Source: Acidaminococcales bacterium
GTDB lineage: Bacteria > Bacillota > Negativicutes > Acidaminococcales > JAISLQ01
Assembly (NCBI GenBank): GCA_031552765.1
Contig: JAVBME010000007.1
Location: 143,397-207,396 of the forward strand
DNA: 64,000 nucleotides
Reading direction: 5' to 3'
Part shown: piece after piece, positions 18,941-50,238 of the stretch
Position numbering within the stretch: position 1 is the first letter of the stretch
How the letters are laid out: every line of letters starts with the position of its first letter
Translations under genes and position numbers: made by a program
Notes under the pieces: generated by a model
The model's database searches: none
Seen by the model: the letters and a program-made list of their open reading frames with translations, nothing else
Told to the model about the DNA's origin: nothing

Positions 18941-19016
<76 letters not shown>

Positions 19017-20227: not shown

Positions 20228-20340
20228 AGACTCACCTCCTTTTTTGCATATGGATTTGATTAGATTTAAATGCACTTTCTAGAATATATTATGTATAGTA
20301 TATCCTAAAAAGCTCTTTTTTTCTTTACAAATTTTATTCA

Positions 20341-30075: not shown

Positions 30076-30091
30076 TGGAGTGTAAATTTAT

Positions 30092-32106: not shown

Positions 32107-32107
32107 A

Positions 32108-33271: not shown

Positions 33272-33293
33272 ATTTATAGAAAGAAGGCTAAAA

Positions 33294-33872: not shown

Positions 33873-35133
33873 AACTCGTATCCTCCATATAACCCCCCAT
33901 CTAGGTGGTGGCGTTGGTCAGGTATTATTAAATTATCTGTCTTTCGATAAAATAAACTGTCACAGCATAGCTACACTTGAACATGCCAATGAAAAAGCAT
34001 TAAAAATTGCGCAAAAAGAAAGCATAGCAATATATTCTTCCATAAGTCAAAAACTACATGATTTATTGCTTTTAATCAAAAATACAGATATTGTTATTGT
34101 GCACTTTTGGAATCACCCGCTTTTGTATTCTTTTCTGTTAAAAAATCCTCTTCCACCTGCAAGAGTTATTTTTTGGTCGCATATTTCCGGTTTTGATCCT
34201 CCTTATGTTTTTCCACCTAAAATATTAGATTATCCGGATAAATTTGTTTTTACCACTCCCCTTAGCTTCAATACCCAAGAAATTCGGGAGTTTTATGATA
34301 AAAACAAACTCGCAGTAGTTTTTTCTACTGGCGGCATAAATCACGTGAAAGATATTTCACCACAGCCACATACTTCTTTTAATATAGGTTATATTGGAAC
34401 AGTAGACTACGCAAAAATGCATCCTGATTTCATAAATGTGCATAAAAAAACAAATATCCCTAATGTAAAATTTATCATCGTTGGCGGCGACAATGAAAAA
34501 GAAATCGCCCAAGCTGCCGATGAACGCTTTGAATTTACCGGAAAGGTCCCAGATATTCGTCCTTACTTATCCAAGATGGATGTTTTTGGTTACTTGCTGA
34601 GTGAAAAGCATTATGGCACAGGCGAACAAGTATTGCAAGAAGCAATGTCAGTTGGAGTTGTACCGGTTGTTCTCAATAACCCAATAGAAAGTCTTATAGT
34701 AAAGCATGGTGAGACCGGACTAGTAGCGAAGAATACTGACGAATATATAAAATATATAGAATTACTGTATTTTGATGACATTCTAAGAAAAAATTTATCA
34801 CAAAATGCAAAGGCCTATGCAAACACTAATTTTTCTTTAAATATTCTCTGCAGTAAATGGAATGCTATATATAATGAAATTATAAAAATGCCTAAAAAAG
34901 AACGGCAATATAGCAAAAAAACCGACTATAGGCCTGCGGAAATATTCTTAGAATCACTGGGAAAATATCACGAACCTTTCTCATTGTATTTGGAAAAGGG
35001 CGACGTTTCCTTACTAGAAGGTATTTTGAAACAGCCACAATGGAGTTCAGAAACCAAAGGTACGCCCAAACACTATTACCAATTTTTTAATGATGACTTA
35101 CAGCTAAAGAAAATTATTGACTTATATAGATAA
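33865..35133 (+). CDS. GT-B glycosyltransferase (family 4/1-like)
   Basis: MSKTRILHITPHLGGGVGQ N-terminus and C-terminal GTGEQVLQEAMSVGVVPVV..GETG (EX7E-type). Start moved to ATG 33865, overlapping the upstream stop (ATGAGTAA). Confidence 0.8.
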   Translation: MSKTRILHITPHLGGGVGQVLLNYLSFDKINCHSIATLEHANEKALKIAQKESIAIYSSISQKLHDLLLLIKNTDIVIVHFWNHPLLYSFLLKNPLPPARVIFWSHISGFDPPYVFPPKILDYPDKFVFTTPLSFNTQEIREFYDKNKLAVVFSTGGINHVKDISPQPHTSFNIGYIGTVDYAKMHPDFINVHKKTNIPNVKFIIVGGDNEKEIAQAADERFEFTGKVPDIRPYLSKMDVFGYLLSEKHYGTGEQVLQEAMSVGVVPVVLNNPIESLIVKHGETGLVAKNTDEYIKYIELLYFDDILRKNLSQNAKAYANTNFSLNILCSKWNAIYNEIIKMPKKERQYSKKTDYRPAEIFLESLGKYHEPFSLYLEKGDVSLLEGILKQPQWSSETKGTPKHYYQFFNDDLQLKKIIDLYR

Positions 35134-35149
35134 TAAAAGGAGTTAATAG

Positions 35150-36394
35150 ATGGATATCAAACAATTATTAAGCCCGGATTATAAAATAAATATTGAACAA
35201 ATGCACAATCTACATCACTACATATCTAAACCAATCGTCATATTCTCTGCTTCCTCTGGCGGCAAAGCTATAACTGATTACTTAAAAGATACTTACAATA
35301 AATATCCAATAGCTTTTGCTGATAATAGCAAAGAAAAACAGGGCACATTATTTGAAGGTATACCTATCTACTCGTTTGATGAAATACGCCATAAATATGA
35401 CTTTTCAGAAATAACTGTAATAAATGCCTCAGATTCATTTCGCAATGAAATTTATATCCAACTAAAGACTGCCGGGTTACCAGATGATTCATATATGGAT
35501 ATACAATTTCTAGCCGCTTTTGATGAAAATTTTTTGCAACATAAAAACTTTATAACACAAAACACCCAATCTATGCTATTGGATTATGTTTCAGATGTAT
35601 GGACAAAAAGCAGTCAATTTCATAATCTTGGTAAAAGAGCAGTCGATAACATAAGATATGACGATTACCTTATGCAAAACGCTGCTAAACTGGAAGCTGT
35701 TTATGATATACTGGCTGATAGCAAATCTAAAGATATATATGAGAAATATATCCACGGCGCTGGCAATAGTCATATCAACACCAAATATAAATATACCATC
35801 CTTGATAGTGTCCGCGATGGTAATTATTACCTTGGCGGCGATATCATAAAACTTGACGAAAATGAAGTGTTTGTCATGGCCGGAGCATATGGTGGTATTG
35901 ATAGCATTAAATTTGCTGAACAAACAAAAGGCAAATACTCTCATATAGTCACTTTCGAACCCGACAAAGAAAACTTTCTCAAAGCTAAAGAAAACTTAGA
36001 GAGTTATGGTTTGCAAAGATATCATATATTTAACGAAGCCTTGTATAGCAAAGATTGCACACTGTATTTTGCAGCGGATGGAGATATGGGTTCCAAGATA
36101 GAAAATACCGGTACGATAGAAGTAAAAGCTGTTACACTTGACGGTTGCATGGAAAGGCTTGGTATTTGGCCCTCTTATATACGCCTGGATGTGGAAGGCG
36201 CTGAAGCCGAGGCCTTGCTCGGTACTAAAAAGATTATAGAAAATCATCAACCAAAACTACAAATCAGTATCTACCACAAAAAAGAAGATATTTTTGAACT
36301 GCCTCTTCTTATAAAAAAACTGAATCCCAAATATGATATATATATACGTGCTCATGCCGATTTGTTGTGTAGTATGGTTTGTTACGCTATTTAG
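35150..36394 (+). CDS. FkbM-family methyltransferase with N-terminal Rossmann-like module
   Basis: VFVMAGAYGGIDS (motif I), VTFEPDKENF, IRLDVEGAEAEAL, ISIYHKKEDIF. Confidence 0.8.
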   Translation: MDIKQLLSPDYKINIEQMHNLHHYISKPIVIFSASSGGKAITDYLKDTYNKYPIAFADNSKEKQGTLFEGIPIYSFDEIRHKYDFSEITVINASDSFRNEIYIQLKTAGLPDDSYMDIQFLAAFDENFLQHKNFITQNTQSMLLDYVSDVWTKSSQFHNLGKRAVDNIRYDDYLMQNAAKLEAVYDILADSKSKDIYEKYIHGAGNSHINTKYKYTILDSVRDGNYYLGGDIIKLDENEVFVMAGAYGGIDSIKFAEQTKGKYSHIVTFEPDKENFLKAKENLESYGLQRYHIFNEALYSKDCTLYFAADGDMGSKIENTGTIEVKAVTLDGCMERLGIWPSYIRLDVEGAEAEALLGTKKIIENHQPKLQISIYHKKEDIFELPLLIKKLNPKYDIYIRAHADLLCSMVCYAI

Positions 36395-36396
36395 AT

Positions 36397-36440
36397 AAAA
36401 AAAGACTCAAGGTTAAAAAAACAACCTTGAGTTTTTTTCT
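36397..36440. terminator. Bidirectional terminator where the two glycan operons converge
   Basis: GACTCAAGGTT-AAAAAAAC-AACCTTGAGT with an A-run before and a T-run after. Confidence 0.75.
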
Positions 36441-37538
36441 TTAAAGAGTAAAATCTTCCTCTCTCAAAGGTATATACCCGCACGGCGGCACAAATGGTTT
36501 TTGGGTACCTGGCGGAGAAGACTCTTCCAGCTGTTTTATCTCATCCAAACAAATTTTTGCGTCAAAGCGTTCCTGGTAAACATGCTTTTGCAACAATTTA
36601 AAGGTTGGATTGTTTGCTATCTCCAAATCAAAACCTTGAATTAAAAATAGATATTTTTTGAAAAGAACAATATTGTCCTCTGCAAACTCTTCGCCTTTGA
36701 GTAAAGGCGCTTTCAATAACCAATAAATCGCGTAATTGAGAATATAGTTGCTGACTTTTTTCTCCATTTCTTCGCGCCTTTGTAAAACATTTTCCAATTT
36801 ATTTTGTTCCGCTAGTTCCAGCATATCCAAATATAGAAGATAACGGTCTATTGCCATAGTCATACGTTTAATATGATTAGCGCCTAAAGCTCCTGAATGG
36901 ATTCTTTGTCCCATCAGTTTTTCATTTATATATCCCATATCTGAATACATGCTATATTTAAAACATCCCTCCCAATCCATAAAATTGCTTTCTCGGCCAG
37001 TATTATATATATTAATTTTTTCAAGTAATTCTTTGCGTATAGCTGTTTGCGGAAAACCACCCAAAGACGCCACAGCCCAAACGGGGAGTTGCTTCTCCTT
37101 AGGCACTATACAACTGCGATCGTAAAAAGGTTTTATTATATTAGCCGCTTCTCCATGTTCATCAATAACATCATAATCTACCATTACAAAGCCGACGTTT
37201 TTGTTTTTATTCATAATGACAGCAGCTTTTTCAGCAATTGTCGGCCTTAGTACATCATCAGCAGCTAAAAGTATAACATATTTGCCACTAGCTAATCGGC
37301 AAACTCTATCAAAATTTTTTCCTGCCCCTATATTTGTGTCATTCTGATATATCTTTATTCTATCCTTATATTTATTTGCTATTTCCATAGAATTATCAGT
37401 TGAACAATTATCGCTGAATATTACCTCGATATTCGGATAAGTCTGGTTTATCGCGCTTTGAATACAGCCATCTAAATAACGGCCATAGTTATAGTTTGGT
37501 ATGCAGATACTGACTAAAGGATACTTTTTTTTTGACAT
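36441..37538 (-). CDS. Family 2 glycosyltransferase
   Basis: VSICIPNYNYGRYLDGCIQSAINQTYPNIEVIFSDNCSTDNS and LLAADD (DxD-type). Confidence 0.85.
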   Translation of the reverse strand: MSKKKYPLVSICIPNYNYGRYLDGCIQSAINQTYPNIEVIFSDNCSTDNSMEIANKYKDRIKIYQNDTNIGAGKNFDRVCRLASGKYVILLAADDVLRPTIAEKAAVIMNKNKNVGFVMVDYDVIDEHGEAANIIKPFYDRSCIVPKEKQLPVWAVASLGGFPQTAIRKELLEKINIYNTGRESNFMDWEGCFKYSMYSDMGYINEKLMGQRIHSGALGANHIKRMTMAIDRYLLYLDMLELAEQNKLENVLQRREEMEKKVSNYILNYAIYWLLKAPLLKGEEFAEDNIVLFKKYLFLIQGFDLEIANNPTFKLLQKHVYQERFDAKICLDEIKQLEESSPPGTQKPFVPPCGYIPLREEDFTL

Positions 37539-37611
37539 CGGGAGTACACATCCTTAATAGTATTTTCTTGCAATCTATTAAATGTTTTATTGATTTTACA
37601 AAACTTATTGA

Positions 37612-38903
37612 CTACAAGCATGTACACAAGTTGTTCATACGATGACAGTCGGACATTGAAAAACATTCGCTTGAATAACCGACTGTTAGACCATTTTTCT
37701 TGCACTGAGCCACAAAATATACATAAATGTCAAATTGTTGTTCAGTGATGTTTGGCAATGGGCTGCCAATTTTTTTTGCTTCTAAAATGCTACTTAAATC
37801 ATTCGATAATATAACCAGGTCCGCTTTCAACCTTTGCGCAATATCAATAAACCCATTTATATCGTCAAAGTTGTCATTTATTCCCGGTATCAAAATATAT
37901 TTTAATTCAATACGACAATTGGTTTGGGCATATCTTTCAATGTTTGAAACTACCTTATAAAAAGTATCAGGTCCTTTTATCCTTTTATATGTTGCAGAAG
38001 TCCCCGCATCCAGGCTAACATTTAGGCAAGAAAGAGGTCTACTTAATATTTCCGCTAAACTATCATTATATATCGCTGCATTAGTACATACCCTGGCAAA
38101 CCAATTCCTGTCTTTTATCAATTTAAGAAGTTTGTCTCTATGGGGTAAAACGGTAATCTCCCCATCAACAAGACACACTGATTTTATTGAATCACCAAAT
38201 TCATCAGCTAAAATAAGGTGTATATCATATCCGTCTAAAACTTGATCGCTTCCAGAAAAAGCCGTATCTGACTGATTACAGTAAATACAGCGGAATTACA
38301 AGTAGTATTGGCAAAACCGGCACCGGCAGACAGCCATCTTATTTCAACATCTCTCGGCCAATAATCCCATTTTAGCAATGAGCAGCCATCACAGTCGGTC
38401 GGAACATCTGTTTTCATTCGTTCAAGCGTATCTTTCAGCCACAAACGAAAATCACCAATAGCGGACCTGACACTCTGCTCTGTAGGCATTTTTTCATTAT
38501 AACTAATCAGTTTACTATATGGAGTACAACATGCTGTAATTCCATACTTGCTAACAACCATTTCGCCCGACAATTGGCGGCACCCGCGCCTATATACTAC
38601 CTCTTCACAATACCGTATTCTTTCTTTCGGGATACTTTGCTCCAATAAGTAATTTGTGATGCTTTGCAAATTACCTGGCTGAGCGGTTACATAAATAATA
38701 TAATCAGGATATTTGGTTATTGCGTCAGCAAGAGAGTATATTGGGTATCCCTCACTTGAATCTTTAGATCCAAGTGAAAACAATTTATCGTGTTTTTTGC
38801 TGTCAATATCTGCAAAACAAACCGGTTCGCCGATCTTTTCTAGCCAACGGCTGAAATTTTGTATGGCATATCCTCCGGCGCCGTAAAAAATTTTTGCTTC
38901 CAT
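37612..38903 (-). pseudogene. Radical SAM enzyme with N-terminal Rossmann-like module, split by a 1-nt frameshift inside the CxxxCxxC motif
   Basis: ORFs 38235..38918 and 37612..38178 are two pieces of one gene. Shifting frame at 38290/38291 gives ..FANTTCNS(A)CIYCNQSDTAFSGSDQVLDGYDIHLILADEFGDSIKSVCLVDGEITVLP..NVSLDAGT... The DNA reads TGT AAT TCC GC- TGT ATT TAC TGT. Confidence 0.7.
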
Positions 38904-38946
38904 GCTTAAAACCTCCACGATATAGTTATCAAGTGTATTAACTCTT

Positions 38947-41097
38947 TCATTTAGTAGCGTTTATCGAGATAAACCCACACTCCGGCAAAGGCTGGCTAAG
39001 GTCAAATACATACTTCATTTCTTCGCTTTCGTGTTTAACAAAGCCCATGCGCGGCAGTAAATCTTTTACAAGAACATTCTTCGCTGTGGCGATATATTCG
39101 CCGCTTACAGTGCTTACGCCGGCCTGTTTGGCCGAGCGCAAAATGTCGGCAAATATAAATTCCTCCATCTGCCGCCCCAACACGCGGCAGCTCATTAAGA
39201 GTGTATCTATATGCCAATTGCCAGTTTCTTTTTTTACAATTACGACGCCGATCAGCCCCTGATCGCCAAAGCGGTCTTTGAGCCTGTACCATTTTGTCCA
39301 ATAACCCTCGCTGTTCTGGCAGATTTTCCTGACCTGTTCTTGCGTGTAGCGCCTGGTGGTCAAGTTGAACTGATTGGTTTTATTAATAAGCTGGGTGACG
39401 CGCGTGAGGGTCTTTTCATCCACGGCGCCGCATTCAGCCACCATATCGAGGCCCTGCAAAAAATCTTCTAAAGAATCGCCTGTGTTGGCGGTTTTTTCAA
39501 ATTCCTGCCGGGCCATGTTTTGCTTGTAACTGTCCTGGCGCACTTTATCCTCTTCTGTCAGCGCTATGCTGTCAAAATACTGCCCATTGCGCAATGCCGC
39601 CAGCATCTCCCAAGAACTGCTTCCCCCTTCAGGCACAGTCACTTCCGGCAGGGCTTTTCGCACTAGCGCCCGCTCCAGCGGATTGTCATCCAAAAAGACA
39701 AAACTGTCCAGTCCCAATGACAATGTTTGCGCAATATTTTTGATATTCTCCGCTTTATCTTGCCAATTAGCTTCAAACATGACAAAGTCGTCCAGTTTAA
39801 GCAGCATCTCCGGCCGTTCTTTAAAGGGCGTCTTTGCGTCTTCTTTATTGTTTTTCGAGCAAACGGCCAGCAGCACGCCTTTTTGCGCCAGTTCTTTCAT
39901 GTACTTCTGCAAGTCAAGGTGCGCCTCGCCCACTGGGCTGCCCTGGCCTATTTCCACCCCGTCCGCGCCCTCTTCACCGACTACGCCGCCCCATAGGGTA
40001 TTATCAAGGTCGGTCACCAGCACTTTGGCCGCCAGGCCAAAGGCCGCTCTGATGTGCGCTGACATATAGCGCGCAGTAAGTGGTAAGCACTCTAAAGCTG
40101 GGTACTGCTCCACATTATGCCATTCTTGGGCGGAGTAAAACCCTTCGCCCGCCCGGCGCTGCACTTTTGCCATATCGAGAAAAGATACGCCTGCCGGCAG
40201 TCCTTCGGCCAAGCGACTGTTGATTTTTGTTATGGTATGATTGCGCCCGCCGCCGAGCTCTTCCAGCAGTCCCCAGGCGCCGTCCGGCGGATAAGAAAAG
40301 CCAGCCTGCACAATATGGCAAGAGTGGCTGCCCTGCAATCTAGTCCACAGCGCTTTTAGTTCTTTCGGCGCTTCTTCGGCTTTTTGCAGCGTATTTTCCG
40401 GCCCCAGGCCCAAATCATGATGATTTAAAAGTATTATCACCACATCCGGCTTAAAAGCGTATAAAGAAGATCTATCGTCTAATACCTCCTGCCGCCAGTT
40501 CCCGTAAGCGCCTTCATACACTTCAGCCGCAATGCCGCTCAAAAAACTCTCCGCCCTGATTACCGGAGCCAAAAAAGCTGTGGTAGAGCTGCCCAAAAGA
40601 GCTATTTTTACTTTGCGGCGCACGGTGAAAGCTTCTTTATTTATTATCTTATCAATAGTTTTTTCCGCGTTTACATAAAAAGAATAGGCGGGCGATAAAG
40701 ACAAAGCCGTTTTAAGATCGGCGGCGGCCAGCCTGTATTTTTCCATCCGGGTATAAAGCTTTGCCCTTTCCAGCAAGAGTCCAATATCCGGCTTGGGTAA
40801 AAGTTCCAATGCCTCACTCAGTTTGCCGCAGGCCGCTTGCCGGTCTTGGCCCAGTATCATGCCGTATTGCAAAAACAAAGACAGCGGGCTTTTATATTTA
40901 GGCAGCTCTTCAGCCAGTCCGGCAAAGGCGCTGCTTTTTATTTCCAGTTTGTATTCCAAAAAAGCGGCCAAAGCCTTGGCCGCATCATAATCAAAACCAG
41001 TTGCTCGGTCATTGGCCAGGCAGCCTTTTAGCCATTCTTTAACAGTATTTTCCTCAGAAAACCCGGTCATATACTTTACCACTTCTTTTGTCAGCAC
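38947..41097 (-). CDS. FkbH-like HAD-IIIC protein (glyceryl-ACP-forming enzyme family) with N-terminal TPR-like region
   Basis: VLVTDLDNTLWGGVVGEEG (HAD motif I of the FkbH type), LAVCSKNN, FLDDNP, and a C-terminal acyltransferase-like domain. GTG start has a GAGGTG SD. Confidence 0.8.
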   Translation of the reverse strand: MLTKEVVKYMTGFSEENTVKEWLKGCLANDRATGFDYDAAKALAAFLEYKLEIKSSAFAGLAEELPKYKSPLSLFLQYGMILGQDRQAACGKLSEALELLPKPDIGLLLERAKLYTRMEKYRLAAADLKTALSLSPAYSFYVNAEKTIDKIINKEAFTVRRKVKIALLGSSTTAFLAPVIRAESFLSGIAAEVYEGAYGNWRQEVLDDRSSLYAFKPDVVIILLNHHDLGLGPENTLQKAEEAPKELKALWTRLQGSHSCHIVQAGFSYPPDGAWGLLEELGGGRNHTITKINSRLAEGLPAGVSFLDMAKVQRRAGEGFYSAQEWHNVEQYPALECLPLTARYMSAHIRAAFGLAAKVLVTDLDNTLWGGVVGEEGADGVEIGQGSPVGEAHLDLQKYMKELAQKGVLLAVCSKNNKEDAKTPFKERPEMLLKLDDFVMFEANWQDKAENIKNIAQTLSLGLDSFVFLDDNPLERALVRKALPEVTVPEGGSSSWEMLAALRNGQYFDSIALTEEDKVRQDSYKQNMARQEFEKTANTGDSLEDFLQGLDMVAECGAVDEKTLTRVTQLINKTNQFNLTTRRYTQEQVRKICQNSEGYWTKWYRLKDRFGDQGLIGVVIVKKETGNWHIDTLLMSCRVLGRQMEEFIFADILRSAKQAGVSTVSGEYIATAKNVLVKDLLPRMGFVKHESEEMKYVFDLSQPLPECGFISINATK

Positions 41098-41114
41098 AGG
41101 TAAACACCTCTATT

Positions 41115-41357
41115 TTACGGCAAATGCCTGTTTATAGCCTCTATAAAATCCGCCACGCATTTTATTTTGCTCACTTCGCCCAGTTCCAGCGTTATATCGA
41201 ACTCTTCCTCCGCCATAATGACCAGCTTCACCTGGGCGACCGAGTCCCACTCAAGCAAAGTTTCCGGTGAAGTTTCATCAGATATTGCCATCGAGGGGTC
41301 GTCGAAAACTTCCCGGAAGATATTGCGCAGCCTTATACGCAGGGCGGCTTTGTCCAT
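41115..41357 (-). CDS. Acyl carrier protein (ACP-2)
   Basis: 80 aa with a LEWDSVAQVKL phosphopantetheine-site-like DSx motif. GAGGTG SD. Confidence 0.75.
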   Translation of the reverse strand: MDKAALRIRLRNIFREVFDDPSMAISDETSPETLLEWDSVAQVKLVIMAEEEFDITLELGEVSKIKCVADFIEAINRHLP

Positions 41358-41417
41358 GTTTTAACACCTCTTCTTGTAATTTCTGCCATATATTTGGCAA
41401 TAAACGCCTTATCGGAT

Positions 41418-42491
41418 TTACCCTATTTCACAACCTTGTTCATAAATAACAGGCGGTAAAACAAGTGTCTTGGATAAATCTGCTATAACAGAAGCAACAG
41501 TAAGACCTGAGCCAAAACCGCTCGACAGCACTTTTGCCAGTTTATTGTCCTTGGCCAGTTGATCCCAGCTCAGACAAAGGGCCAGAGGGATCGACACCGG
41601 GCCAGTATTTCCGGTATTTTCCAGCAGTATCGGCAGGCTTTCCCGAGGTATTTTCAGCTTTTTTTGCAAATATTCAAGAATAAGCCTGTTGGGCTGATGA
41701 AACAAAAAAGTATCTATATCCTGCTTTGTCAGCTCAGCCTCAGCCAGCGCCTCTTTTACAGAGTCTGGCACATGCTTTAGCGCAAAGTGCATTACTTCCA
41801 TACCATCCATATAAAAATCGTTGGGCGCTCTTGTATTTCCGTTGCCATCCACTTCTTCACGGCAGGTACCCATGCAGTAAGGCATACGTTGAGCTCCCGC
41901 CGGAATACAAAGATATTTGACCCCCCCGCCATTAGTGTAAACATGAAAAGGCATACTGCCCGCGCCTTTTTCTACCAAAACAGCGGCGCCTGCGTCGCCC
42001 ATCAAGACTCTGGTCGAACGGTCTTTGGGATTGATAAACTTGGAAAGTGTATCGCCCAAACATAGCAGCACTTTTTCCGCCATACCGGATGAAATGAGCA
42101 TCCCTGCCTGCAATAAGCCGTAAATATAGCCTGAGCAGCCATAATTGATATCAAATGCGGTTATATCTTTGCGTAAAGACAGTCTATCTTGCATTACAGC
42201 GCTGGTGGCCGGCAGTTTATAGTCCGGAGTCTGGGTAATAAAAACCAGCGCGTCGATCGCAGAAGGCTCTATAGCCATTTTATCCAGCAGATGTTTGGCC
42301 GCGTGCACACATAAATCAGATGCGCAGGTTTCGTCTCCCGCAATGTGCACTCTTTTCACGCCGCTACTGGAGATTATGCGGCTCATATCCGCATCGCTGA
42401 ACTCTTTTCCCATGTCCGCCACTTCAACTATACGCGCCGGCAATGATGACGCCACACCTGTCAATGCTACCCCGTTTATTGTACATTTCAT
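41418..42491 (-). CDS. KAS III (FabH-like) condensing enzyme, copy 2
   Basis: NYGCSGYIYGL (Cys), FHQPNRLIL (His), NTGNTGPVSIP (Asn). Confidence 0.85.
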   Translation of the reverse strand: MKCTINGVALTGVASSLPARIVEVADMGKEFSDADMSRIISSSGVKRVHIAGDETCASDLCVHAAKHLLDKMAIEPSAIDALVFITQTPDYKLPATSAVMQDRLSLRKDITAFDINYGCSGYIYGLLQAGMLISSGMAEKVLLCLGDTLSKFINPKDRSTRVLMGDAGAAVLVEKGAGSMPFHVYTNGGGVKYLCIPAGAQRMPYCMGTCREEVDGNGNTRAPNDFYMDGMEVMHFALKHVPDSVKEALAEAELTKQDIDTFLFHQPNRLILEYLQKKLKIPRESLPILLENTGNTGPVSIPLALCLSWDQLAKDNKLAKVLSSGFGSGLTVASVIADLSKTLVLPPVIYEQGCEIG

Positions 42492-42517
42492 AATAGCTTT
42501 TCCTCTTGACTATAAAT

Positions 42518-43276
42518 CTATGCTAAAAATCCGCCATCTACAACCACATCGGTGCCTGTGATCCAACCCGAGCGGCTGCTAAGCAAAAACAGCGCAACTC
42601 CGCTAACATCACAAGTCGTTCCCGTGCCGATCAAATGCTGGTCAATATAGCTCTGATCGCGCACCAGTTCATATTTTGTCGTCATTTTGGTATCGACAAC
42701 ACCCGGGCTTATAGAGTTTACTCTATGCTGCTTGGCCGATATTTCCTTGGCGGCAGATTGCACGGCCACTTTCACGGCGGCCTTTGCCGCGCTGTAGGCA
42801 AAAAAACCCTTTTGTCCGCGGCTTGCGCTGGCGGAAGCAAACAACACATTCGAAGTGCCGCGGTTGGCATAAGAGACCTTGGTAACCAACTGCAAAAGCT
42901 TCATGCCCGCCCAAAAGCTGACGTCCATTATAGCTTTTGCCGAAGCTTCGTCATAACTTTTTAAAGGAGTTATATCAATAATCCCTGCTACATGGACACA
43001 GCCGTCCAGTTTGCCGCAAGCGGTCACAAACGCCTTTATACATTCTTCGAGTTTGTCATATTGCCTTACATCACATATTCCGGTTACGATATTGTCTTTA
43101 TACTGCTTTTGCAATTCTCCCAGCTCTTCTTCACGCCTGGCGATAGCCAAGACCTTGGCGTTGGCCGCTGCCAGGTCCGCAGCTATTTGCCTGCCGATAC
43201 CGGACGAAGCCCCGGTCACAACAAAGTTTTTACCTGTAAAATCATAGCTTATATCATTAGATTGCATACTCTTCAC
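42518..43276 (-). CDS. Short-chain dehydrogenase/reductase (FabG-like ketoreductase)
   Basis: VVTGASSGIGRQ and YSAAKAAV. Start is uncertain: GTG 43276 or ATG 43267. Confidence 0.8.
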   Translation of the reverse strand: MKSMQSNDISYDFTGKNFVVTGASSGIGRQIAADLAAANAKVLAIARREEELGELQKQYKDNIVTGICDVRQYDKLEECIKAFVTACGKLDGCVHVAGIIDITPLKSYDEASAKAIMDVSFWAGMKLLQLVTKVSYANRGTSNVLFASASASRGQKGFFAYSAAKAAVKVAVQSAAKEISAKQHRVNSISPGVVDTKMTTKYELVRDQSYIDQHLIGTGTTCDVSGVALFLLSSRSGWITGTDVVVDGGFLA

Positions 43277-43334
43277 TCGTTTCGCAAAGATTTGCCAGGT
43301 TTACTTTATAAATCCATAGCCTGGCAAAAGTTTT

Positions 43335-43544
43335 TTATTTAACCAGCAAATATAAGTCCTGTACAGTCTGGGCTTTTTTGATATCGGCAAAAACCATTGT
43401 TTTACCGTATTCAGAGTCAACCATAGCAACAAAGCTCACCAAACCAAGAGAATCCCACTCCTCTACCTCCGCAAGCTTAGTTTCCATGGTAAGAGTGATT
43501 TCCGGCTCCAATATCTCCGTCATTTTTTCCAAAAATTCATCCAT
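43335..43544 (-). CDS. Acyl carrier protein (ACP-1)
   Basis: 69 aa with an EEWDSLGLVSF DSL motif. GAGGAGG SD. Confidence 0.75.
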   Translation of the reverse strand: MDEFLEKMTEILEPEITLTMETKLAEVEEWDSLGLVSFVAMVDSEYGKTMVFADIKKAQTVQDLYLLVK

Positions 43545-43571
43545 GTTTAAACAACCTCCTCTTTTTTTATA

Positions 43572-44624
43572 TCATGCCGTGTAATCAAAAGGCGGCAAAA
43601 TAACAGTTTCCGACAAATCTGCGATAGTTGAGGCGATAGACAGCCCCACGCCAAACCCACAGCACAGCACTTTAGACATACTGCCCTGTACCCGTAAACT
43701 ATCCACTGCCAAAGTTAAAGCCAGCGGAATGGAGGCCGAGCTGGTATTGCCAGTATCTTGCAACATTATGGGCAAACGCTCTGCGGGTATTTTCATTTTT
43801 TTACGCAAGTGGTTGAGCATAAATTCATTTGCCTGATGCAAAGCAAAAACATCTATATCATCCTTGCTGAGGACTGCTTCTTTTAGCACTCCATCGATAG
43901 ATTTAGGCACTTCTTTTATAGCAAAATTGAGTATTTCAAAACCATTCATATAAGTATGGTTTTTTGTCCTGGTATTGCCCTCTTCGTCCGTGTATTCCCT
44001 GGCCGTTTCAGCGCTGTAAGGCATCCGGCAACCGCCGGCCGGGACAATAATATGCCCAGAGCCCGAGCCATCTGTGAAAAAATGAAAAGGCATTGATCCC
44101 GCACCTTTTTCTATGATGGTGGCTGTTCCGGCATCGCCGAATAGCACCCGGGTAGAGCGGTCTTTCGGATAGGCAAAGTGTGTGCTTATTTCTCCCGCGC
44201 ATAGCAGCACTTTTTGGCAAACACCTGTAGAAATAAGCATGGCAGCCTGCAAAAGGCCATAAACATACCCTGAACAGCCATAAGCTATATCAAAGGCTAC
44301 CACGTCGGTCGACAAGCCCAGCCGGTCTTGTATGATACAACTGGTCGCCGGGAGCTTGTAGTCAAAAGTTTGCGAAACAAATACTACTGCATCGACAGTG
44401 CTTCTGTCGATATTGCCGGCAGCAAAAAGTTTTTCTGCGGCAAATACACACAAATCAGACGTACAGGTATTTTCACCGGCAATACGAATGTTTCTCACTC
44501 CACTGCTGGCAATTATGCGCTCAACTTCGGCAGCGCCAAAACCCATATCTTTTACCGCCAGTATATTTTGCGGCAGCGCTGACGCAATCGCTGTTATAGC
44601 AATATTATTTATAGTATGGCTCAT
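43572..44624 (-). CDS. KAS III (FabH-like) condensing enzyme, copy 1
   Basis: AYGCSGYVYGL, LHQANEFML, DTGNTSSASIP. Start chosen at ATG 44624 (MSHTINNIAI), which aligns with MKCTINGVAL of copy 2. Confidence 0.85.
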   Translation of the reverse strand: MSHTINNIAITAIASALPQNILAVKDMGFGAAEVERIIASSGVRNIRIAGENTCTSDLCVFAAEKLFAAGNIDRSTVDAVVFVSQTFDYKLPATSCIIQDRLGLSTDVVAFDIAYGCSGYVYGLLQAAMLISTGVCQKVLLCAGEISTHFAYPKDRSTRVLFGDAGTATIIEKGAGSMPFHFFTDGSGSGHIIVPAGGCRMPYSAETAREYTDEEGNTRTKNHTYMNGFEILNFAIKEVPKSIDGVLKEAVLSKDDIDVFALHQANEFMLNHLRKKMKIPAERLPIMLQDTGNTSSASIPLALTLAVDSLRVQGSMSKVLCCGFGVGLSIASTIADLSETVILPPFDYTA

Positions 44625-44638
44625 TTTCATACACACCT

Positions 44639-45229
44639 TTACTCCAAAAGACTTTTAGCAAAACCGGCTATAGATGATTTTTTTCCCCGAAACAGCAAAA
44701 ACTCGATTTTATCCTTACTTTGCAGCCAGGCATCTTTAAATAACGCCATTCTTACTATATCCTGGTATTCACCATTTTTAAGCTTGTGTTTCACAAAATA
44801 ACCCTCTTGCACAAAACCAAGTTTTTTCTGGTAAGTTATGGCGGCTTTGTTAAAAGCGAATACCTCAATAGACACTTTGCGCATATTTTCAACTTCAAAA
44901 ATGTAGCTGGTACAAAAAAAAGACATTAGCACACCGGCGCCCGGCAGAATTTGCTCTTCTCCGATATAGGCGCCGGAAAAGCATGTACCGTCACACTCGT
45001 TTATGTCAACATAAGAAGTAAAGCCTATCGGCTGGCCATGATACTCAAATATAAGGTATATCGCATCCTGGCGCGTAACAGCCTTCTCCAGCCAAGCCTG
45101 GTGCTCTTCTTTTTTGATGATATGGTCGCTATACATATTGGCCCGTACACGCTCGCTATTGCGCCAGGCAAAGAGCGTTTCCAAGTCGCTCCTGTCGATC
45201 CCTCTGATTTTAAAAACACTATCTGCCAT
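44639..45229 (-). CDS. GNAT N-acyltransferase, PseH-like
   Basis: IRGIDRSDLETLFAWRNSERVRANMYSDHIIKKEEHQAWLEK.. resembles PseH/FlmH-type acetyltransferases. GNAT core is KKLGFVQEG. Confidence 0.7.
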   Translation of the reverse strand: MADSVFKIRGIDRSDLETLFAWRNSERVRANMYSDHIIKKEEHQAWLEKAVTRQDAIYLIFEYHGQPIGFTSYVDINECDGTCFSGAYIGEEQILPGAGVLMSFFCTSYIFEVENMRKVSIEVFAFNKAAITYQKKLGFVQEGYFVKHKLKNGEYQDIVRMALFKDAWLQSKDKIEFLLFRGKKSSIAGFAKSLLE

Positions 45230-45250: not shown

Positions 45251-45613
45251 TTATAGAGAGTGTATATCCCTGTCTTTAGCCTCCGGGGCCATGGCTTCAG
45301 ACAAAGCATTCAGCCAGGTACAATCCGAAAGCGCTGTAAAAGTATGCGCCTCGTAGGGTTCTATAATAAAAATATCTCCTTGATGTGCGGTAAATTCACA
45401 GATAACCTTGCCATGCATATCTACGATTACGACCTTTATCTCACCGCCTAATATATAAAAAAGCTCCTCGGTGGTTTTATGGTAGTGTCCGCCGCGCACC
45501 GCGCCTTTCTTGCTTTCGATGAGATTGATCTCCCGCCAGCAGCCGCTGTTTATGATACCGTTGATCTTGCCGCGTTCGTCTTCAAATAACTGATAAGAAG
45601 ATACTTTCTTCAC
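45251..45613 (-). CDS. Cupin-fold protein (sugar ketoisomerase/WxcM-like)
   Basis: 120 aa with DERGKI..VRGGHYHK..EPYEAHTF cupin motifs. Confidence 0.65.
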   Translation of the reverse strand: MKKVSSYQLFEDERGKINGIINSGCWREINLIESKKGAVRGGHYHKTTEELFYILGGEIKVVIVDMHGKVICEFTAHQGDIFIIEPYEAHTFTALSDCTWLNALSEAMAPEAKDRDIHSL

Positions 45614-46467
45614 AAGCCAGCCAACTCCTCTTTTATCGCGTTAAGGCTCTCAGACAGGGAGCTTTTTTTCACGCCCAAAACAGTCCTGCTCCAGTCGTCG
45701 TCAAGTGAAAGGTCAGGAAAAATAAAGGGCGCCGTCCCGCGTAAAGAAGCCAAGACCAACTCTTTGGGATAACCGAAAACTTTCGCCACCGTCTGGGCAA
45801 ATTCGTAGCGGGACACTCTTTCTCCCGCGCAATGAAACACCCGCCCGGCAACTCCTTTTTCCAGTAAAGTCGCTGTAAAAGCACAAAAATCCCCGCAATA
45901 TACCGGTGAATAAAAAGCGTCAGAAAAACAGTCAGCAGCTTCTCCTTCTTTAAAACAGCCTAAGATGTATTGCAAGAAAGCCGCTTGCGAGCTGTATAAA
46001 GCACTTATACGCACGACACAGAATCTATCTGAAGAGGCTAATCCTATCTGCTCGCCTAGCAGTTTACTCTCGCCGTACACTGTGGCCGGATCTGGCTGGT
46101 CTGTCTCTTTGTAGCCACCGCTCAAACCGGCAAATACATAGTCACTTGACAAGTAGATGACCGGCGTAGTTGGAAAAGCGGAAAACAGGTATCTCAAGCT
46201 GTTGCCGTTAGCTAAAAACGCTTCATTTGGGTGTTGCTGACAATATTTTATATCCTTGCTGCCATTAGCCAGGATTATATGGTCGGGCACGACCTTTTGC
46301 GCCAGGCGTTTTACATCATCTTCTTGGGTAAAATCACAAGTAAAGTTCTGCCCATCCTCCCTAGCGCTCCTGCTGGCACCGTGTACCTCATATTCCTTTT
46401 GCAAAAAAGCGCTTAGTTGGCGGCCGATATAACCGGTATGACCGGCCAGGAGTATCTTTTTTGCCAT
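45610..46467 (-). CDS. RmlD-like NAD(P)-dependent sugar reductase (SDR)
   Basis: ILLAGHTGYIGRQL and YGESK (YxxxK). Start moved to ATG 46467, 5 nt after a GGAGG SD. Confidence 0.75.
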   Translation of the reverse strand: MAKKILLAGHTGYIGRQLSAFLQKEYEVHGASRSAREDGQNFTCDFTQEDDVKRLAQKVVPDHIILANGSKDIKYCQQHPNEAFLANGNSLRYLFSAFPTTPVIYLSSDYVFAGLSGGYKETDQPDPATVYGESKLLGEQIGLASSDRFCVVRISALYSSQAAFLQYILGCFKEGEAADCFSDAFYSPVYCGDFCAFTATLLEKGVAGRVFHCAGERVSRYEFAQTVAKVFGYPKELVLASLRGTAPFIFPDLSLDDDWSRTVLGVKKSSLSESLNAIKEELAGL

Positions 46468-46468
46468 A

Positions 46469-48418
46469 TCAGCCTCCACTCTGCATGCTGGTTATAGGCA
46501 ACGCCGTTTGCCAGACTGGATGAGACAGGTCGTAGAGCGGAAGTATGCGCGCGCGCGGCTGGAATTTTTCCAGATTTTTGTATATATCCGATCCGGATGC
46601 TGCGGCGGCGATAATGATAGTTGAAACGCCTTCTTCTTCGATCAAGCGGCCCACATCCTCATAGCTGAATACCTGCCAATTCGGCAAAGGCGGCTCCGCG
46701 AGCGCCGCGTCCACAACACCGGCAAAACAAATTTCCGGATAACCTTTCAGTAAACGGAAAATATCTTCGGCCATCAGCCCACGTCCGCCATAGAGCAAGA
46801 ACTTTTCTTGCACATATCTGTCATTATCAAATAGCTGGCGTAAAAAAGCGATAAACTGCGGCGCTTTTACCTCTTCCGGGCAATCGCCTACTACTTTGTA
46901 ATCGCCTGTAAGCACCCCGCTATGATAATAAGGTAAATTCAGTACTGCTTTCCTATCTTGCAAAGCAGTGTAAACCTTTTCCAGTAAACACCCCGGAATA
47001 AAAACATTATCCAAAAGCGCCATTTTACCTTTGCCAATATCTACGGTGAAAAGGTTTTCCCTGATGTAAGAAATCACCCAGGGATGATAGCAACTGGCGT
47101 CTACTATCTCAGGCAGAACGACGCCGCTGATATTTTGCCGGTATCTGATAAGCGGCTCATCATGCAGTGTAGCTGTTTGCAAAAAAGTGCGTCCCCAGAT
47201 TAGAGGTTTTCCGGTCTGAAATCTGCTCAAACCCAAAAGATCATATTGGGTGTTAACTACTAGTTTTTTGTTGCTGATAAAGTGTACCCAGTCCGGTTTT
47301 TTCTGCGTTTGGCAAAGTTTTTTCAATTCATAGAATAAATCTGATGGCCGTTCTAAAACAATCTGCTCGACCTGGCAGGCTGTTTTTTCCAGGCTATTTT
47401 TAGGCGGCCAAAGAGTGGCCGCTTTAACCAAAAGCTCTTTTACCCGCATAGACATCGTATGTTTGCTATGCGCGGCCTCGCAAGCCTTTTGCGCTATATA
47501 GAGGCGCTTTTCATCATGCTTAAGATAATAAGCTATCTTTTCTCTCAATTCATCAGCGTCACGGAAAAATACTATCTCTTGGTCTTCTTTAAATATTTCG
47601 GCAAGTTCCGGGTTATAGTTAGTCATCTGAAAAGCGCCCGCGCCGGCAACCTCAAAATGGCGCAACTTGGTCTGGTAGCCCCCGGCCTTGCCATCAGCGG
47701 AAAAGCCTGGGTTGACTACGATCTTGGCCTGATGGTAAATGTTTACCATCTCTTGAGTGCTCCGCCGCCCGCGGGCATATGCATGGAGCGTAGGATGCCG
47801 ATCCCACCAGCCGCCAAATAAGTCAAATCTACAACCTATATCCCGGCAGATCTCACTTACTTTTACCAACACCTGCTGGCGGATAAAGCCGTCTCTTATG
47901 TACAGGTTGGGGTTTTCCGGACTGGCTGAATTGACGCCGAAATAAATGACATCATAGTTTTTCTTAGTGTTGCCGCCAGGTTTGAATATGCGCTGATTAA
48001 AACCCCAGGGAAGAAACATTATTTCCCCGGTATATCCTGCGTTTATCCGACGCTCCAGGCCTTTTTTCGATTGGGTAGCGATAAGAGAAAAGCGGTGGTC
48101 GTATTTTTCATTCAGTGAAAACCAGATCTCCGGCTCATCGTCAGCATAAAAGGTTAACACCGGTATATTATATTCGCGTAACCGCTCGAAAAAAGTATCG
48201 GAAAAGTCATAGTTGACCGACTCCGGGTAAAAAAACACGTAGTCGTAGCTATTTTGCCGTAAAATATTGAAGATATATTGCTGGCAAAAATCCTTACCAT
48301 ATGCTTTTACCAGAAGGGAAACATCCACAAGATGCGTCTCGGCCAGTTCTTTTAGTGGCTCGACCCAATTTTCTACTATGTACTGTATGGATACCGCCCC
48401 GATCATCAGGATACGCAT
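46469..48418 (-). CDS. CgeB-family glycosyltransferase-like protein with about 300-aa C-terminal extension
   Basis: KLRHFEVAGAGAFQMTNYNPELAEIFKEDQEIVFFRDADELREKIAYYLKHDEKR matches the CgeB/Glyco_trans_1_2 pattern. The C-terminal half is unassigned and ends in a Rossmann-like module. Confidence 0.65.
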   Translation of the reverse strand: MRILMIGAVSIQYIVENWVEPLKELAETHLVDVSLLVKAYGKDFCQQYIFNILRQNSYDYVFFYPESVNYDFSDTFFERLREYNIPVLTFYADDEPEIWFSLNEKYDHRFSLIATQSKKGLERRINAGYTGEIMFLPWGFNQRIFKPGGNTKKNYDVIYFGVNSASPENPNLYIRDGFIRQQVLVKVSEICRDIGCRFDLFGGWWDRHPTLHAYARGRRSTQEMVNIYHQAKIVVNPGFSADGKAGGYQTKLRHFEVAGAGAFQMTNYNPELAEIFKEDQEIVFFRDADELREKIAYYLKHDEKRLYIAQKACEAAHSKHTMSMRVKELLVKAATLWPPKNSLEKTACQVEQIVLERPSDLFYELKKLCQTQKKPDWVHFISNKKLVVNTQYDLLGLSRFQTGKPLIWGRTFLQTATLHDEPLIRYRQNISGVVLPEIVDASCYHPWVISYIRENLFTVDIGKGKMALLDNVFIPGCLLEKVYTALQDRKAVLNLPYYHSGVLTGDYKVVGDCPEEVKAPQFIAFLRQLFDNDRYVQEKFLLYGGRGLMAEDIFRLLKGYPEICFAGVVDAALAEPPLPNWQVFSYEDVGRLIEEEGVSTIIIAAAASGSDIYKNLEKFQPRARILPLYDLSHPVWQTALPITSMQSGG

Positions 48419-50238
48419 GGACTGCCCCCAGGATAAATATGCCCATTGCTGGCTATCCCAGCCAGGATACGCCCGCCGATATCCTCTGCGACCTTGTGGG
48501 CCTGGCCGTATTGCACTCCGGTAAGATTGCTGTACGGCACTATCGCCCCGGAAAAACCATGTTTTTCTTTCAATGCCGCGGCTTTTTGCTTAAGCATTGC
48601 CTGGTCAAAGTTTCCAGCTTCGTTAAAAATATGTATATTTTCCTGACCTAAAACCTCTTTGAATTCCCCGGCAAAACGCTCATGCGAAAAAAGGTGGATA
48701 TCATAGCCGGTTTTCAATAACGTTTTTACTATTTCACGCGTAAAAGCAAACATGGCCGATTGCAACACTACCACTCTTGAGCCTTGCGGCAATTCTCCCA
48801 AAGTGTTTTTCAAATCAGCGGCAAATTGCGCGCTGTTGACAGACCTAATGGCTATGCTCTGCCGCCAGCGACGCATGGCTTCAAGGCGCAACTCTTCAAG
48901 ATCTTCCCCCGTCAAAGTCTCTGTGCGGATGACCGCAGACGAAAAGCCGTTATAGGCGTCCCAGCCCTTGCCGGTCAACCAGCCTTTTTCTTTATATATC
49001 TCATACATTTTGGTGCCGGGAAAAGGAGTGGCGATGGAAAACTGCGCCGAATGAGCGGGCAGCTCACAGGCCAGCCTGATGGTATCTTCTATGGTTTCGC
49101 GCGTATCGCCCGGGTGGCCAATGGTAAAAGTCAAATGTATCTTTATACCTAAGTCGTATGTCAGTTTGATCATTTTCACAGCTTGTTCGACATTCATGCC
49201 TTTTTCTATATTTTTTAAAATATTGGTACTAGCCGATTCCAAGCCATAGTTCATGCTGTATATATTCGCCGCTTTCAACTCATGCAGCAGTTCTTCCGTC
49301 ATCAAGTCCGGTCGGCTCATCGTTCCCCACATCAAAGAACTGAAACCGTTTTCTTTCATCATTTTAGCGACTTTTTTTACATGGTCGGGCCGCACATTGA
49401 AAGTATCGTCATCGATAAAGATGCTTTTATAATCATGTTTTGCCAGTTGGTCTTTTATTTCCGCCGCAATATCATCTACATCACGTAGCCGGTGTTTGCC
49501 GTTTTTATAAAGCACCTGCGGCCACACGCAAAATATACAGCCAAACGGGCAACCCCGGCTGGAGTGTATTTGCAGCTGCGGTTTGGCCAGACCGCAAAAA
49601 TCAGCGTAATAACTTTCGTTGGGCAGGGTATCGCGCAGCGGCCAGGGCAGTTTTGCCATATCCAAAGGCTCGCCGATGGCATTTTTTATTACTTGCCCAT
49701 TGTGCCGGTAAATCAAATTAGGTATGCCGGCCAAATCTTTTCCGTCTCGCAAAGTTACGAGCAAATCAGTTACAGCTTGTTCATATTCGCCATATACAAT
49801 ATAATCAACGACCGTTTGTTCCTGCAAAAAAGCTATATCTTCCAGTTCGGAATGTATGCCTGTCAAAATTATGGTGATACCGGGTTTTATCTTTTTTAGC
49901 TGTTTACATATATCTAAATCATTACCCAAACAGGGCGTAGCTGTTTCCATGACATAAAAATCCGGACTGTAATCTTTAAAAGCAGCATAAAAATCATCAT
50001 ATGTCTCGCCTAGAACAATGGAATCACGAACGCATACCTCTAGCCCTTCGTTTTTTGCCATCGCTCCCGCAATGGCCAGGAAAAAGGGAAAAGGCAAAGC
50101 TGTGGCCACCAGCGAACTGCCGAAGGTTTCTTTCATGTAGGCCCACCGCGATCCCGCCCTTATGCCCAGCCAGCCGGGCTCTCCACCTTTAGCCGCTTTA
50201 TACCACGGCGGGTTTGCAAACAGTACTTTCTCGGTCAT
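48406..50238 (-). CDS. B12-binding-domain radical SAM enzyme (class B) with C-terminal extension
   Basis: N-terminal cobalamin-binding-like domain. SSRGCPFGCIFCVWP (CxxxCxxC). About 150-aa C-terminal Rossmann-like extension. Confidence 0.85.
   Translation of the reverse strand: MTEKVLFANPPWYKAAKGGEPGWLGIRAGSRWAYMKETFGSSLVATALPFPFFLAIAGAMAKNEGLEVCVRDSIVLGETYDDFYAAFKDYSPDFYVMETATPCLGNDLDICKQLKKIKPGITIILTGIHSELEDIAFLQEQTVVDYIVYGEYEQAVTDLLVTLRDGKDLAGIPNLIYRHNGQVIKNAIGEPLDMAKLPWPLRDTLPNESYYADFCGLAKPQLQIHSSRGCPFGCIFCVWPQVLYKNGKHRLRDVDDIAAEIKDQLAKHDYKSIFIDDDTFNVRPDHVKKVAKMMKENGFSSLMWGTMSRPDLMTEELLHELKAANIYSMNYGLESASTNILKNIEKGMNVEQAVKMIKLTYDLGIKIHLTFTIGHPGDTRETIEDTIRLACELPAHSAQFSIATPFPGTKMYEIYKEKGWLTGKGWDAYNGFSSAVIRTETLTGEDLEELRLEAMRRWRQSIAIRSVNSAQFAADLKNTLGELPQGSRVVVLQSAMFAFTREIVKTLLKTGYDIHLFSHERFAGEFKEVLGQENIHIFNEAGNFDQAMLKQKAAALKEKHGFSGAIVPYSNLTGVQYGQAHKVAEDIGGRILAGIASNGHIYPGGSPCVS

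Follow-up and report, generated by a model that had tools for sequence, protein, structure and literature searches.

An FkbH-containing acyl-ACP cassette within a glycan operon of an Acidaminococcales bacterium, a candidate source of hydroxyacyl groups for a pseudaminic acid-type sugar

Introduction

What are condensing enzymes, acyl carrier proteins (ACPs), and an FkbH-family protein doing in the middle of an operon of glycan genes? The question is raised by a 64,000-nucleotide (nt) stretch of DNA from an Acidaminococcales bacterium (GenBank assembly GCA_031552765.1, contig JAVBME010000007.1, positions 143,397 to 207,396 of the forward strand); we refer to this whole stretch as the window, and all positions below are window coordinates. 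Seven open reading frames (ORFs), all on the minus strand at 38947-45229 and separated by gaps of 2 to 67 nt, encode in order of transcription a PseH-family N-acyltransferase with a GCN5-related N-acetyltransferase (GNAT) fold, a 3-ketoacyl-ACP synthase III (KAS III-1), an ACP (ACP1), a short-chain dehydrogenase/reductase (SDR), a second synthase (KAS III-2), a second carrier (ACP2), and the FkbH-family protein.

An earlier note on this DNA, made from the letters of the sequence, had offered two readings of these genes: a source of an ACP-tethered acyl donor that the GNAT transfers to a sugar, or a compact tetronate- or butenolide-like small-molecule pathway nested in the glycan locus. Our analysis favors the first, given that related cassettes lie beside N-acyltransferase and amino-sugar genes, that the GNAT is kin to PseH, that a PseG gene is nearby, and that the key FkbH residues are kept. 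Most likely, a glycolysis intermediate provides part of a small hydroxylated acyl chain that the products of the seven genes assemble and then transfer to a surface sugar of the pseudaminic acid type. In its full form our best explanation is a carrier-protein-dependent acyl-chain factory that decorates a sugar, with a glycerate-derived or glycerate-primed hydroxyacyl group placed on N7 of pseudaminic acid, and we put its probability at roughly 55%.

Results

Gene content of the cassette

The GNAT (44639-45229) scores 124 bits against the NCBIfam PseH model TIGR03585 (cutoff, 93), and its gene ends 2 nt before that of KAS III-1 (43572-44636), a FabH-like condensing enzyme with both Pfam halves of the family (PF08545 and PF08541). 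ACP1 (43335-43544; 69 amino acids [aa], DSL serine) has no Pfam match and is kin to ACP2 (E = 5e-8). The FabG-like SDR ketoreductase (42518-43276) matches adh_short_C2 at 154 bits along with a KR domain and carries the motifs TGASSGIG and YSAAK, and KAS III-2 (41418-42491) is a paralog of KAS III-1 with the same two Pfam halves. The gene for ACP2 (41115-41357; 80 aa, DSV serine, PF00550) ends 17 nt upstream of the FkbH gene (38947-41097), whose 716-aa product matches TIGR01686 at 309 bits (cutoff, 147) over profile positions 2 to 320 of 323. Gene calls are identical in L006, an independent assembly of this locus that may have been built from the same reads, and the seven are real genes rather than chance ORFs. 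The inventory in the earlier note, that is, seven tightly packed co-directional genes with their quoted motifs and with PseH-like and FkbH-like labels, is borne out by these coordinates and scores.

FkbH and its carrier protein

FkbH-family enzymes load a glyceryl unit from 1,3-bisphosphoglycerate onto an ACP, and this established chemistry is the basis on which we assign the 716-aa protein as a putative loader. Its homologs number more than 3000, many of about 710 to 720 aa, with a best identity of 52% (49% for the best match in our species-genome scan); an exact-match look-up returned no match. In an alignment of 20 homologs, residues D363, D365, T367, S414, K448, D470, and D471 are invariant, as is the triplet S636-C637-R638, and C413 is conserved in at least 90%. 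The HAD-IIIC model TIGR01681 matches at 60 bits (cutoff, 36). Judged by these residues the HAD phosphatase site is intact and Cys637 is the probable catalytic acyl-enzyme cysteine; the earlier note had asked whether the catalytic Cys and HAD residues persist on alignment, and they do. An AlphaFold (AF2) model (pLDDT, 85.6) comprises N-terminal helical repeats (TPR), an SGNH-like FkbH_N domain, a HAD-IIIC phosphatase, and a C-terminal GNAT fold, with fold matches to 3SLR, MDP-1, GNATs, and TPR proteins; PDB entry 3SLR, matched by the SGNH-like and HAD parts, is an uncharacterized protein of Bacteroides fragilis. In this predicted structure Cys637 lies in the GNAT-fold domain immediately before the RxxGxx loop. 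Since that loop binds the pantetheine pyrophosphate in GNATs, the position of Cys637 would suit transfer to a carrier-protein arm. A terminator-like hairpin at 40964-40983, inside the FkbH gene, is probably there by chance and was disregarded.

The carrier for this step is probably ACP2. It is 50 to 51% identical to the FkbH-adjacent ACPs of loci L001, L003, and L005, and an ACP of its type adjoins FkbH in about 70 of the 80 species loci (L010 to L089) from which all our FkbH neighborhood counts are drawn; we therefore propose it as the dedicated partner of FkbH. With the FkbH/OzmB-type loaders of methoxymalonyl-ACP, tetronate, and lactate-starter pathways the system has in common a HAD phosphatase, a transferase domain that bears a Cys, and an ACP of its own. 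It differs from them in the extra N-terminal TPR and SGNH-like domains, in its glycan-operon context, and in the absence from the locus of a polyketide synthase (PKS), FkbI/FkbK/FkbG, and a tetronate tailoring set. A methoxymalonyl- or hydroxymalonyl-ACP pathway was rejected: the locus has no 3HCDH (FkbK-type) or acyl-CoA dehydrogenase (FkbI-type) domain, and the sole oxidoreductase within the cassette is a classical SDR.

Condensing enzymes, ACP1, and ketoreductase

The two KAS III proteins are 56% identical to each other, and both align a Cys-His-Asn triad with C112, H244, and N274 of Escherichia coli FabH, in agreement with the earlier note, so that to judge from the alignment both keep the triad required for decarboxylative condensation. 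They are 26 to 27% identical to E. coli FabH (against a provisional reference sequence) and carry an insertion of about 20 residues relative to it. The two copies score 231 and 234 bits against the FabH model NF006829 (cutoff, 249) and 203 and 202 bits against TIGR00747 (cutoff, 292); their best PDB match is the orphan structure 3GWA at 263 bits, compared to 100 bits for E. coli FabH. Because both fall below the cutoffs of both models, they are by sequence not housekeeping FabH, the point on which the earlier note had wanted them checked and on which the low identity to E. coli FabH agrees. Housekeeping fatty acid synthesis was rejected as their role on these scores and on the location of their near relatives, all in glycan loci.

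The nearest KAS III relatives with readable neighborhoods lie in glycan loci ordered aminotransferase (DegT), PglD-like acyltransferase, ACP, KAS, SDR, and KAS, without FkbH. Compared with one such FkbH-less cassette (L007), which has synthases KASa and KASb, KAS III-1 is 62% identical to KASa, ACP1 is 61% identical to its counterpart, and the SDR is 46% identical. KAS III-2 is 54% identical to KASa and 37% identical to KASb, values that mark it as a duplicate of the KASa type, unlike the KASb of the acetate-only cassette.

The closest precedent for this module, and one that the earlier note missed, is the type II fatty acid synthase-like wfpC-G set of Flavobacterium psychrophilum. In the O-antigen locus of that species, wfpC and wfpE encode synthases, wfpD an ACP, wfpF a reductase, and wfpG a PglD homolog, and the five genes were proposed, as a prediction, to build the 3,5-dihydroxyhexanoyl group that chemical analysis has established on N4 of Qui2NAc4N (Cisar et al. 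2019, PMC6519341). In the window, too, genes for two 3-ketoacyl-ACP synthases, a dedicated ACP, a ketoreductase, and an N-acyltransferase adjoin one another within a glycan locus; the likeness to wfp itself is one of gene set, and the closest relatives of KAS III-1, ACP1, and the SDR are wfp-like metagenomic cassettes. F. psychrophilum has neither FkbH nor a second ACP, and its synthases are of two types, whereas KAS III-2 duplicates the first type. Its transferase is a PglD-type hexapeptide protein with a bacillosamine-type acceptor, in contrast to the PseH-type GNAT fold and the predicted pseudaminic acid precursor in the window.

The position of the KAS III-2 gene next to ACP2 and FkbH also recalls tetronate biosynthesis, whose core (as in RK-682 and tetronomycin) is an FkbH protein, a dedicated ACP, and a FabH-like enzyme. 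In such a scheme KAS III-1 would make acetoacetyl-ACP1 and KAS III-2, acting like RkD or Tmn15, would join glyceryl-ACP2 to it, with release of a free 3-acyl-tetronate. This was the second reading of the earlier note, and neither it nor the accompanying tetronate/polyketide framing holds up; we regard it as highly improbable. Pfam and NCBIfam scans of the locus ORFs found no PKS (as the earlier note had said), E2-like acyltransferase, or alpha/beta hydrolase; nonribosomal peptide synthetases (also noted as absent before) and acyl-CoA dehydrogenases are likewise missing from these ORFs. The cassette sits within a single glycan operon, and its homologs elsewhere invariably accompany genes for amino-sugar aminotransferases and N-acyltransferases, which need a thioester donor. 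Of the rival readings the tetronate scheme is the worst fit because a released lactone cannot serve these conserved N-acyltransferase partners.

Related loci and the convergence of two modules

At least about 600 species genomes contain the FkbH-ACP pair. The closest relatives of the window FkbH come from metagenome-assembled genomes (MAGs) of Bacillota and Chlorobiaceae and from an unclassified metagenome contig (L001), in blocks that run initiating transferase, PglD-like acyltransferase, ACP, KAS III, SDR, a glyoxalase-like gene or a MaoC-SDR pair in some, ACP, FkbH, phosphopantetheinyl transferase (PPTase), aminotransferase, and 4,6-dehydratase. These blocks contain two ACPs and only one N-acyltransferase, with one free amine. 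Because two carriers face a single transferase and a single amine, the glyceryl unit and the KAS chemistry would converge on one acyl group, and this is our main argument. Every related cassette that we examined has an N-acyltransferase gene in the same block, usually directly beside an ACP or KAS gene. By these comparisons the window cassette joins two modules, each of which is also found separately in other glycan loci.

Other FkbH loci have a different composition. A membrane-bound O-acyltransferase (MBOAT; DltB/AlgI-like) gene lies within 10 kb of the FkbH-ACP pair in about 40 to 45 of the 80 species loci, and in one of them (L032, 9779-13200) it is the gene next to the pair. These FkbH-ACP-MBOAT loci resemble a Dlt-like route in which a carrier would hand a glycerate- or lactate-type unit to an MBOAT for O-acylation of extracellular glycopolymers. 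MaoC dehydratase genes occur in 19 of the 80 loci, some of which (e.g., L018) have an adjoining SDR gene.

The modular pattern raises the alternative that the window encodes two independent donors for different positions. KAS III-1, ACP1, the SDR, and KAS III-2 would then make 3-hydroxybutanoyl- or 3,5-dihydroxyhexanoyl-ACP1 from acetyl and malonyl units, and FkbH with ACP2 would supply glyceryl-ACP2; one group might go to N7 via the GNAT, for example, and the other to a hydroxyl or a second amine via another transferase. The separate occurrence of the modules fits this alternative, as do the closeness of KAS III-1, ACP1, and the SDR to the FkbH-less cassette, the pairing of FkbH-ACP with an MBOAT O-acyltransferase and without KAS in about half of the FkbH loci, and the occurrence on pseudaminic acid of glycerate-derived groups in unextended form, as glyceroyl and di-O-methylglyceroyl. 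We nevertheless consider it unlikely, since the operon has a single recognizable acyltransferase, with no MBOAT, PglD-like acyltransferase, or second GNAT acyltransferase in the window, since the closest FkbH relatives pair two ACPs, a KAS, and an SDR with one N-acyltransferase, and since the synthase adjoining ACP2 and FkbH is a KASa-type duplicate rather than one of the KASb type.

The N-acyltransferase and the pseudaminic acid link

The only detectable close homologs of the GNAT, at 40 to 42% identity, are PseH genes that stand beside PseI, PseG, PseC, and PseB in plain pseudaminic acid (Pse) loci. Because these homologs are PseH, the acceptor is most likely UDP-4-amino-4,6-dideoxy-beta-L-AltNAc, whose 4-amine becomes N7 of pseudaminic acid. 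About 6 kb from the GNAT, the window also encodes PseG (51540-52607, minus strand), the UDP-sugar hydrolase of the pathway, which scores 292 bits against TIGR03590 (cutoff, 154) and is 41% identical to the PseG of a complete Pse locus in a Coxiellaceae MAG (L046). PseG and PseH are thus both above their cutoffs; PseB, PseC, PseI, and PseF were not found in the window, where tblastn with L046 queries (PseC, PseF, and PseI) and L090 queries (PseB, PseC, and PseI) gave only a weak dehydratase match, and these four may be located elsewhere in the genome.

As a PseH-like enzyme the GNAT is above the equivalog cutoff, has its nearest homologs in standard Pse loci, and lies near PseG; it differs from PseH in its limited identity, in sharing an operon with KAS III and ACP genes, and in its proposed donor. 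By analogy, we expect it to use acyl-ACP rather than acetyl-CoA, because its gene lies in the cassette operon and because PglD-type cassettes offer a parallel. A competing view is that the GNAT is an ordinary acetyl-CoA-dependent PseH and that the ACP-bound acyl group is attached in another way, for instance by a KAS III-like acyltransferase, perhaps to a sugar derived from a CDP- or GDP-deoxyhexose. The score above the equivalog threshold and the kinship to PseH of plain Pse loci are what this view would predict, and KAS III-like acyltransferases (CerJ, ChlB6, and DpsC) are established in natural-product pathways. The Coxiellaceae MAG adds a case in point: its complete Pse locus (PseC, PseF, PseG, and PseI) is followed by genes for a B12-radical S-adenosylmethionine (SAM) enzyme, FkbH, ACP, ACP, KAS III, and GNAT, and the KAS III (12224-13390) has Ser at the position of Asn274 (E. 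coli numbering), with loss of the decarboxylation Asn, and no SDR gene among its neighbors. That KAS III may be an acyl shuttle, not a condensing enzyme, and this one example hints at simple acyl shuttling there as opposed to true extension in the window. Both window KAS III proteins, by contrast, retain Cys-His-Asn and are accompanied by a ketoreductase, the N-acyltransferase gene belongs to the same block in every related cassette examined, and the gap between the GNAT and KAS III-1 genes is 2 nt; an ordinary PseH is for these reasons improbable.

Operon and surrounding glycan locus

The cassette and its flanking minus-strand genes form a single operon, which runs from a B12-radical SAM gene starting at 50238 to a GT2 glycosyltransferase gene and then a strong hairpin at 36405-36432. 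The first gene (48406-50238) encodes a B12-binding radical SAM protein that is methyltransferase-like (PF02310 and PF04055; HpnJ/PhpK-like NCBIfam matches below cutoff). Another B12-radical SAM gene lies directly upstream of FkbH in the Coxiellaceae locus (8191-9834), and this recurring association suggests that either the sugar or the acyl chain is C-methylated. The second product is a 649-aa protein (46469-48418) with a Glyco_trans_1_2 glycosyltransferase-like domain (PF13524, 108 bits), outside which it has no family match; its gene overlaps its neighbors by a few bases, and the protein is a candidate for transfer to the final target, whether protein or polymer. An RmlD-like NDP-sugar 4-reductase (45610-46479; PF04321, with TIGR01214 at 146 bits, below cutoff) and a small WbuC/RmlC-like cupin (45251-45613; PF07883 and PF00908) complete the part upstream of the cassette.

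Downstream of FkbH, a radical SAM gene (37612-38918, minus strand) is split by a frameshift into ORFs of 227 and 188 aa, with PF04055 matching in the second ORF from profile position 51 only. The frameshift falls within the CxxxCxxC motif ("...ANTTCNS" in frame 0 and "FRCIYCNQS..." in frame +2), and the gene is split at the same place in the L006 assembly, so that either the gene is a pseudogene or both assemblies carry one sequencing error. The last gene (36441-37538, minus strand) encodes the GT2 glycosyltransferase (PF00535, 93 bits), and the terminator-like hairpin, an 11-bp stem followed by a T-run, comes directly after it.

The glycan locus as a whole extends over about 25.7 to 52.6 kb and includes CDP-glucose and GDP-mannose dehydratase routes, radical SAM enzymes, methyltransferases, glycosyltransferases, and PseG, which confirms the glycosyltransferase, NDP-sugar, and methyltransferase neighbors listed in the earlier note. 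There is no aminotransferase, PPTase, or MBOAT in the locus, and PPTase and FabD are absent from the entire window. On the plus strand at 25765-31099, two paralogous radical SAM/SPASM genes come after those for CDP-glucose synthase, a 4,6-dehydratase, an RmlC-like epimerase, and a reductase, an arrangement that suggests an unusual CDP-deoxyhexose in the same glycan. Positions 30000-38000 have 33 to 35% G+C, compared to 45 to 55% elsewhere in the window; this block, with two radical SAM/SPASM genes, methyltransferases including an FkbM-type one, and glycosyltransferases on the plus strand, abuts the cassette operon and probably entered the glycan locus by horizontal transfer. Two HD_5 (HD-GYP-type) proteins and a 1250-aa hybrid histidine kinase with HD_5 are encoded beside the glycan locus at 16500-24093 and, together with a PocR-GGDEF-EAL protein at 58364-61123, make up dense second-messenger signaling.

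Discussion

The reading that we prefer, of a hydroxyacyl group made on ACPs and delivered to N7 of pseudaminic acid, can be set out as a series of predicted steps. FkbH would take in 1,3-bisphosphoglycerate, remove its phosphate, and load the glyceryl unit onto ACP2. KAS III-2, encoded beside ACP2 and FkbH, would condense this primer with malonyl-ACP1 to give 4,5-dihydroxy-3-oxopentanoyl-ACP1, and keto reduction by the SDR would yield the 3,4,5-trihydroxypentanoyl group; KAS III-1 and the SDR may append a second C2 unit to form 3,5,6,7-tetrahydroxyheptanoyl. Malonyl loading and phosphopantetheinylation would fall to enzymes encoded outside the window. The PseH-family GNAT would then use the acyl-ACP to acylate the 4-amino group of UDP-4-amino-4,6-dideoxy-beta-L-AltNAc, with the hydroxyacyl chain taking the place of acetyl, and PseG here, with PseI and PseF encoded elsewhere, would lead to pseudaminic acid carrying the hydroxyacyl group on N7. 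The 2-methoxy-4,5,6-trihydroxyhexanoyl group of Treponema denticola is isomeric (C7H12O5) with the predicted two-extension product; it was rejected as a product of this chemistry, in that its C4-C6 triol does not fit Claisen extension of a glyceryl primer.

Our confidence differs among the parts of this scheme. That the cassette supplies acyl-ACP for glycan acylation we hold with considerable confidence; that the GNAT is the transferase and N7 of Pse the target has somewhat better than even odds; and that the glyceryl unit primes a KAS III chain, rather than being used alone, is a tentative proposal that could well be wrong. Several points weigh against the scheme. Since PseB, PseC, PseI, PseF, PPTase, and FabD are absent from the window, the acceptor is assigned by family membership, and we know of no PseH-family enzyme that uses acyl-ACP. 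The FkbH-ACP pair and the KAS/SDR/ACP module, each found alone in other loci, could act independently, and there are two candidates for the glyceryl-accepting cysteine of FkbH, C637 and C413. To our knowledge, no enzyme of this type of cassette has been characterized and no reported glycan carries trihydroxypentanoyl or tetrahydroxyheptanoyl, and the known glycerate-derived group of Campylobacter jejuni is an unextended C3 unit.

C. jejuni offers a parallel that combines FkbH with nonulosonic acids. The nonulosonic acid locus of strain NCTC 11168 (cj1298-cj1304) includes the FkbH-domain gene cj1302 and acpP3 (cj1304), and the neighboring acyltransferase gene, cj1298, is given in one paper as LegH, the enzyme for N-acetyl transfer in legionaminic acid biosynthesis. 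The locus also contains fabH2 (cj1303) and acpP2 (cj1299); it has one KAS III and is not known to include a ketoreductase. Di-O-methylglyceroyl pseudaminic acid is present in this strain, which bears out the statement in the earlier note about O-methylglyceroyl groups on Campylobacter flagellin; only cj1295 has been linked to this group by experiment, and our literature search found no functional study of cj1299-cj1304. The likeness to the window is one of gene content (an FkbH-domain gene, an ACP, and a nonulosonic acid locus), and the glycerate group of C. jejuni differs from our predicted product in being unextended and O-methylated. Tannerella forsythia makes Pse5Am7Gra, with glyceroyl on N7 of pseudaminic acid; the predicted window product resembles it in bearing a glycerate-type acyl group at N7, the site on which the PseH step acts, and the responsible gene in T. 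forsythia is reported to remain "elusive". Other flagellin islands carry different, uncharacterized ACP cassettes (LuxC/LuxE/FabG). In the literature searched, no paper linked FkbH to glycan acylation, and the sole relevant mention of FkbH with pseudaminic acid, flagellin, or polysaccharide was cj1302. An acyl-side-chain cassette in a glycan locus is thus of an ordinary kind, and it is the combination of FkbH-ACP, duplicated KAS III, ketoreductase, and PseH-type GNAT that is undescribed.

Antigenicity, phage recognition, and flagellar function are shaped by the non-acetyl N-acyl groups that pseudaminic acid, legionaminic acid, and bacillosamine-type sugars carry, and few of the genes that make these groups are known. 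The cassette provides a concrete, testable route to glycerate-derived N-acyl groups, from FkbH and glyceryl-ACP through optional KAS III/ketoreductase extension to a PseH-type transferase. A bolder version, for which we would give clearly less than even odds, is that a widespread and undescribed FkbH route feeds 1,3-bisphosphoglycerate into surface glycans and here, with glyceryl-ACP as primer of a small FAS-II-like line of two KAS III proteins and a ketoreductase, yields a polyhydroxy C5-C7 acyl group on Pse N7 via a PseH-family GNAT that uses acyl-ACP; if true, both the acyl group and the donor specificity would be ones not yet reported for nonulosonic acids, and genes labeled "HAD-IIIC family phosphatase" and "ketoacyl-ACP synthase III" in glycan loci would need re-annotation. 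FkbH-ACP chemistry may be general, given that the pair often lies beside N-acyltransferases or MBOAT O-acyltransferases, and this points to a broad, unstudied role of FkbH in surface glycans.

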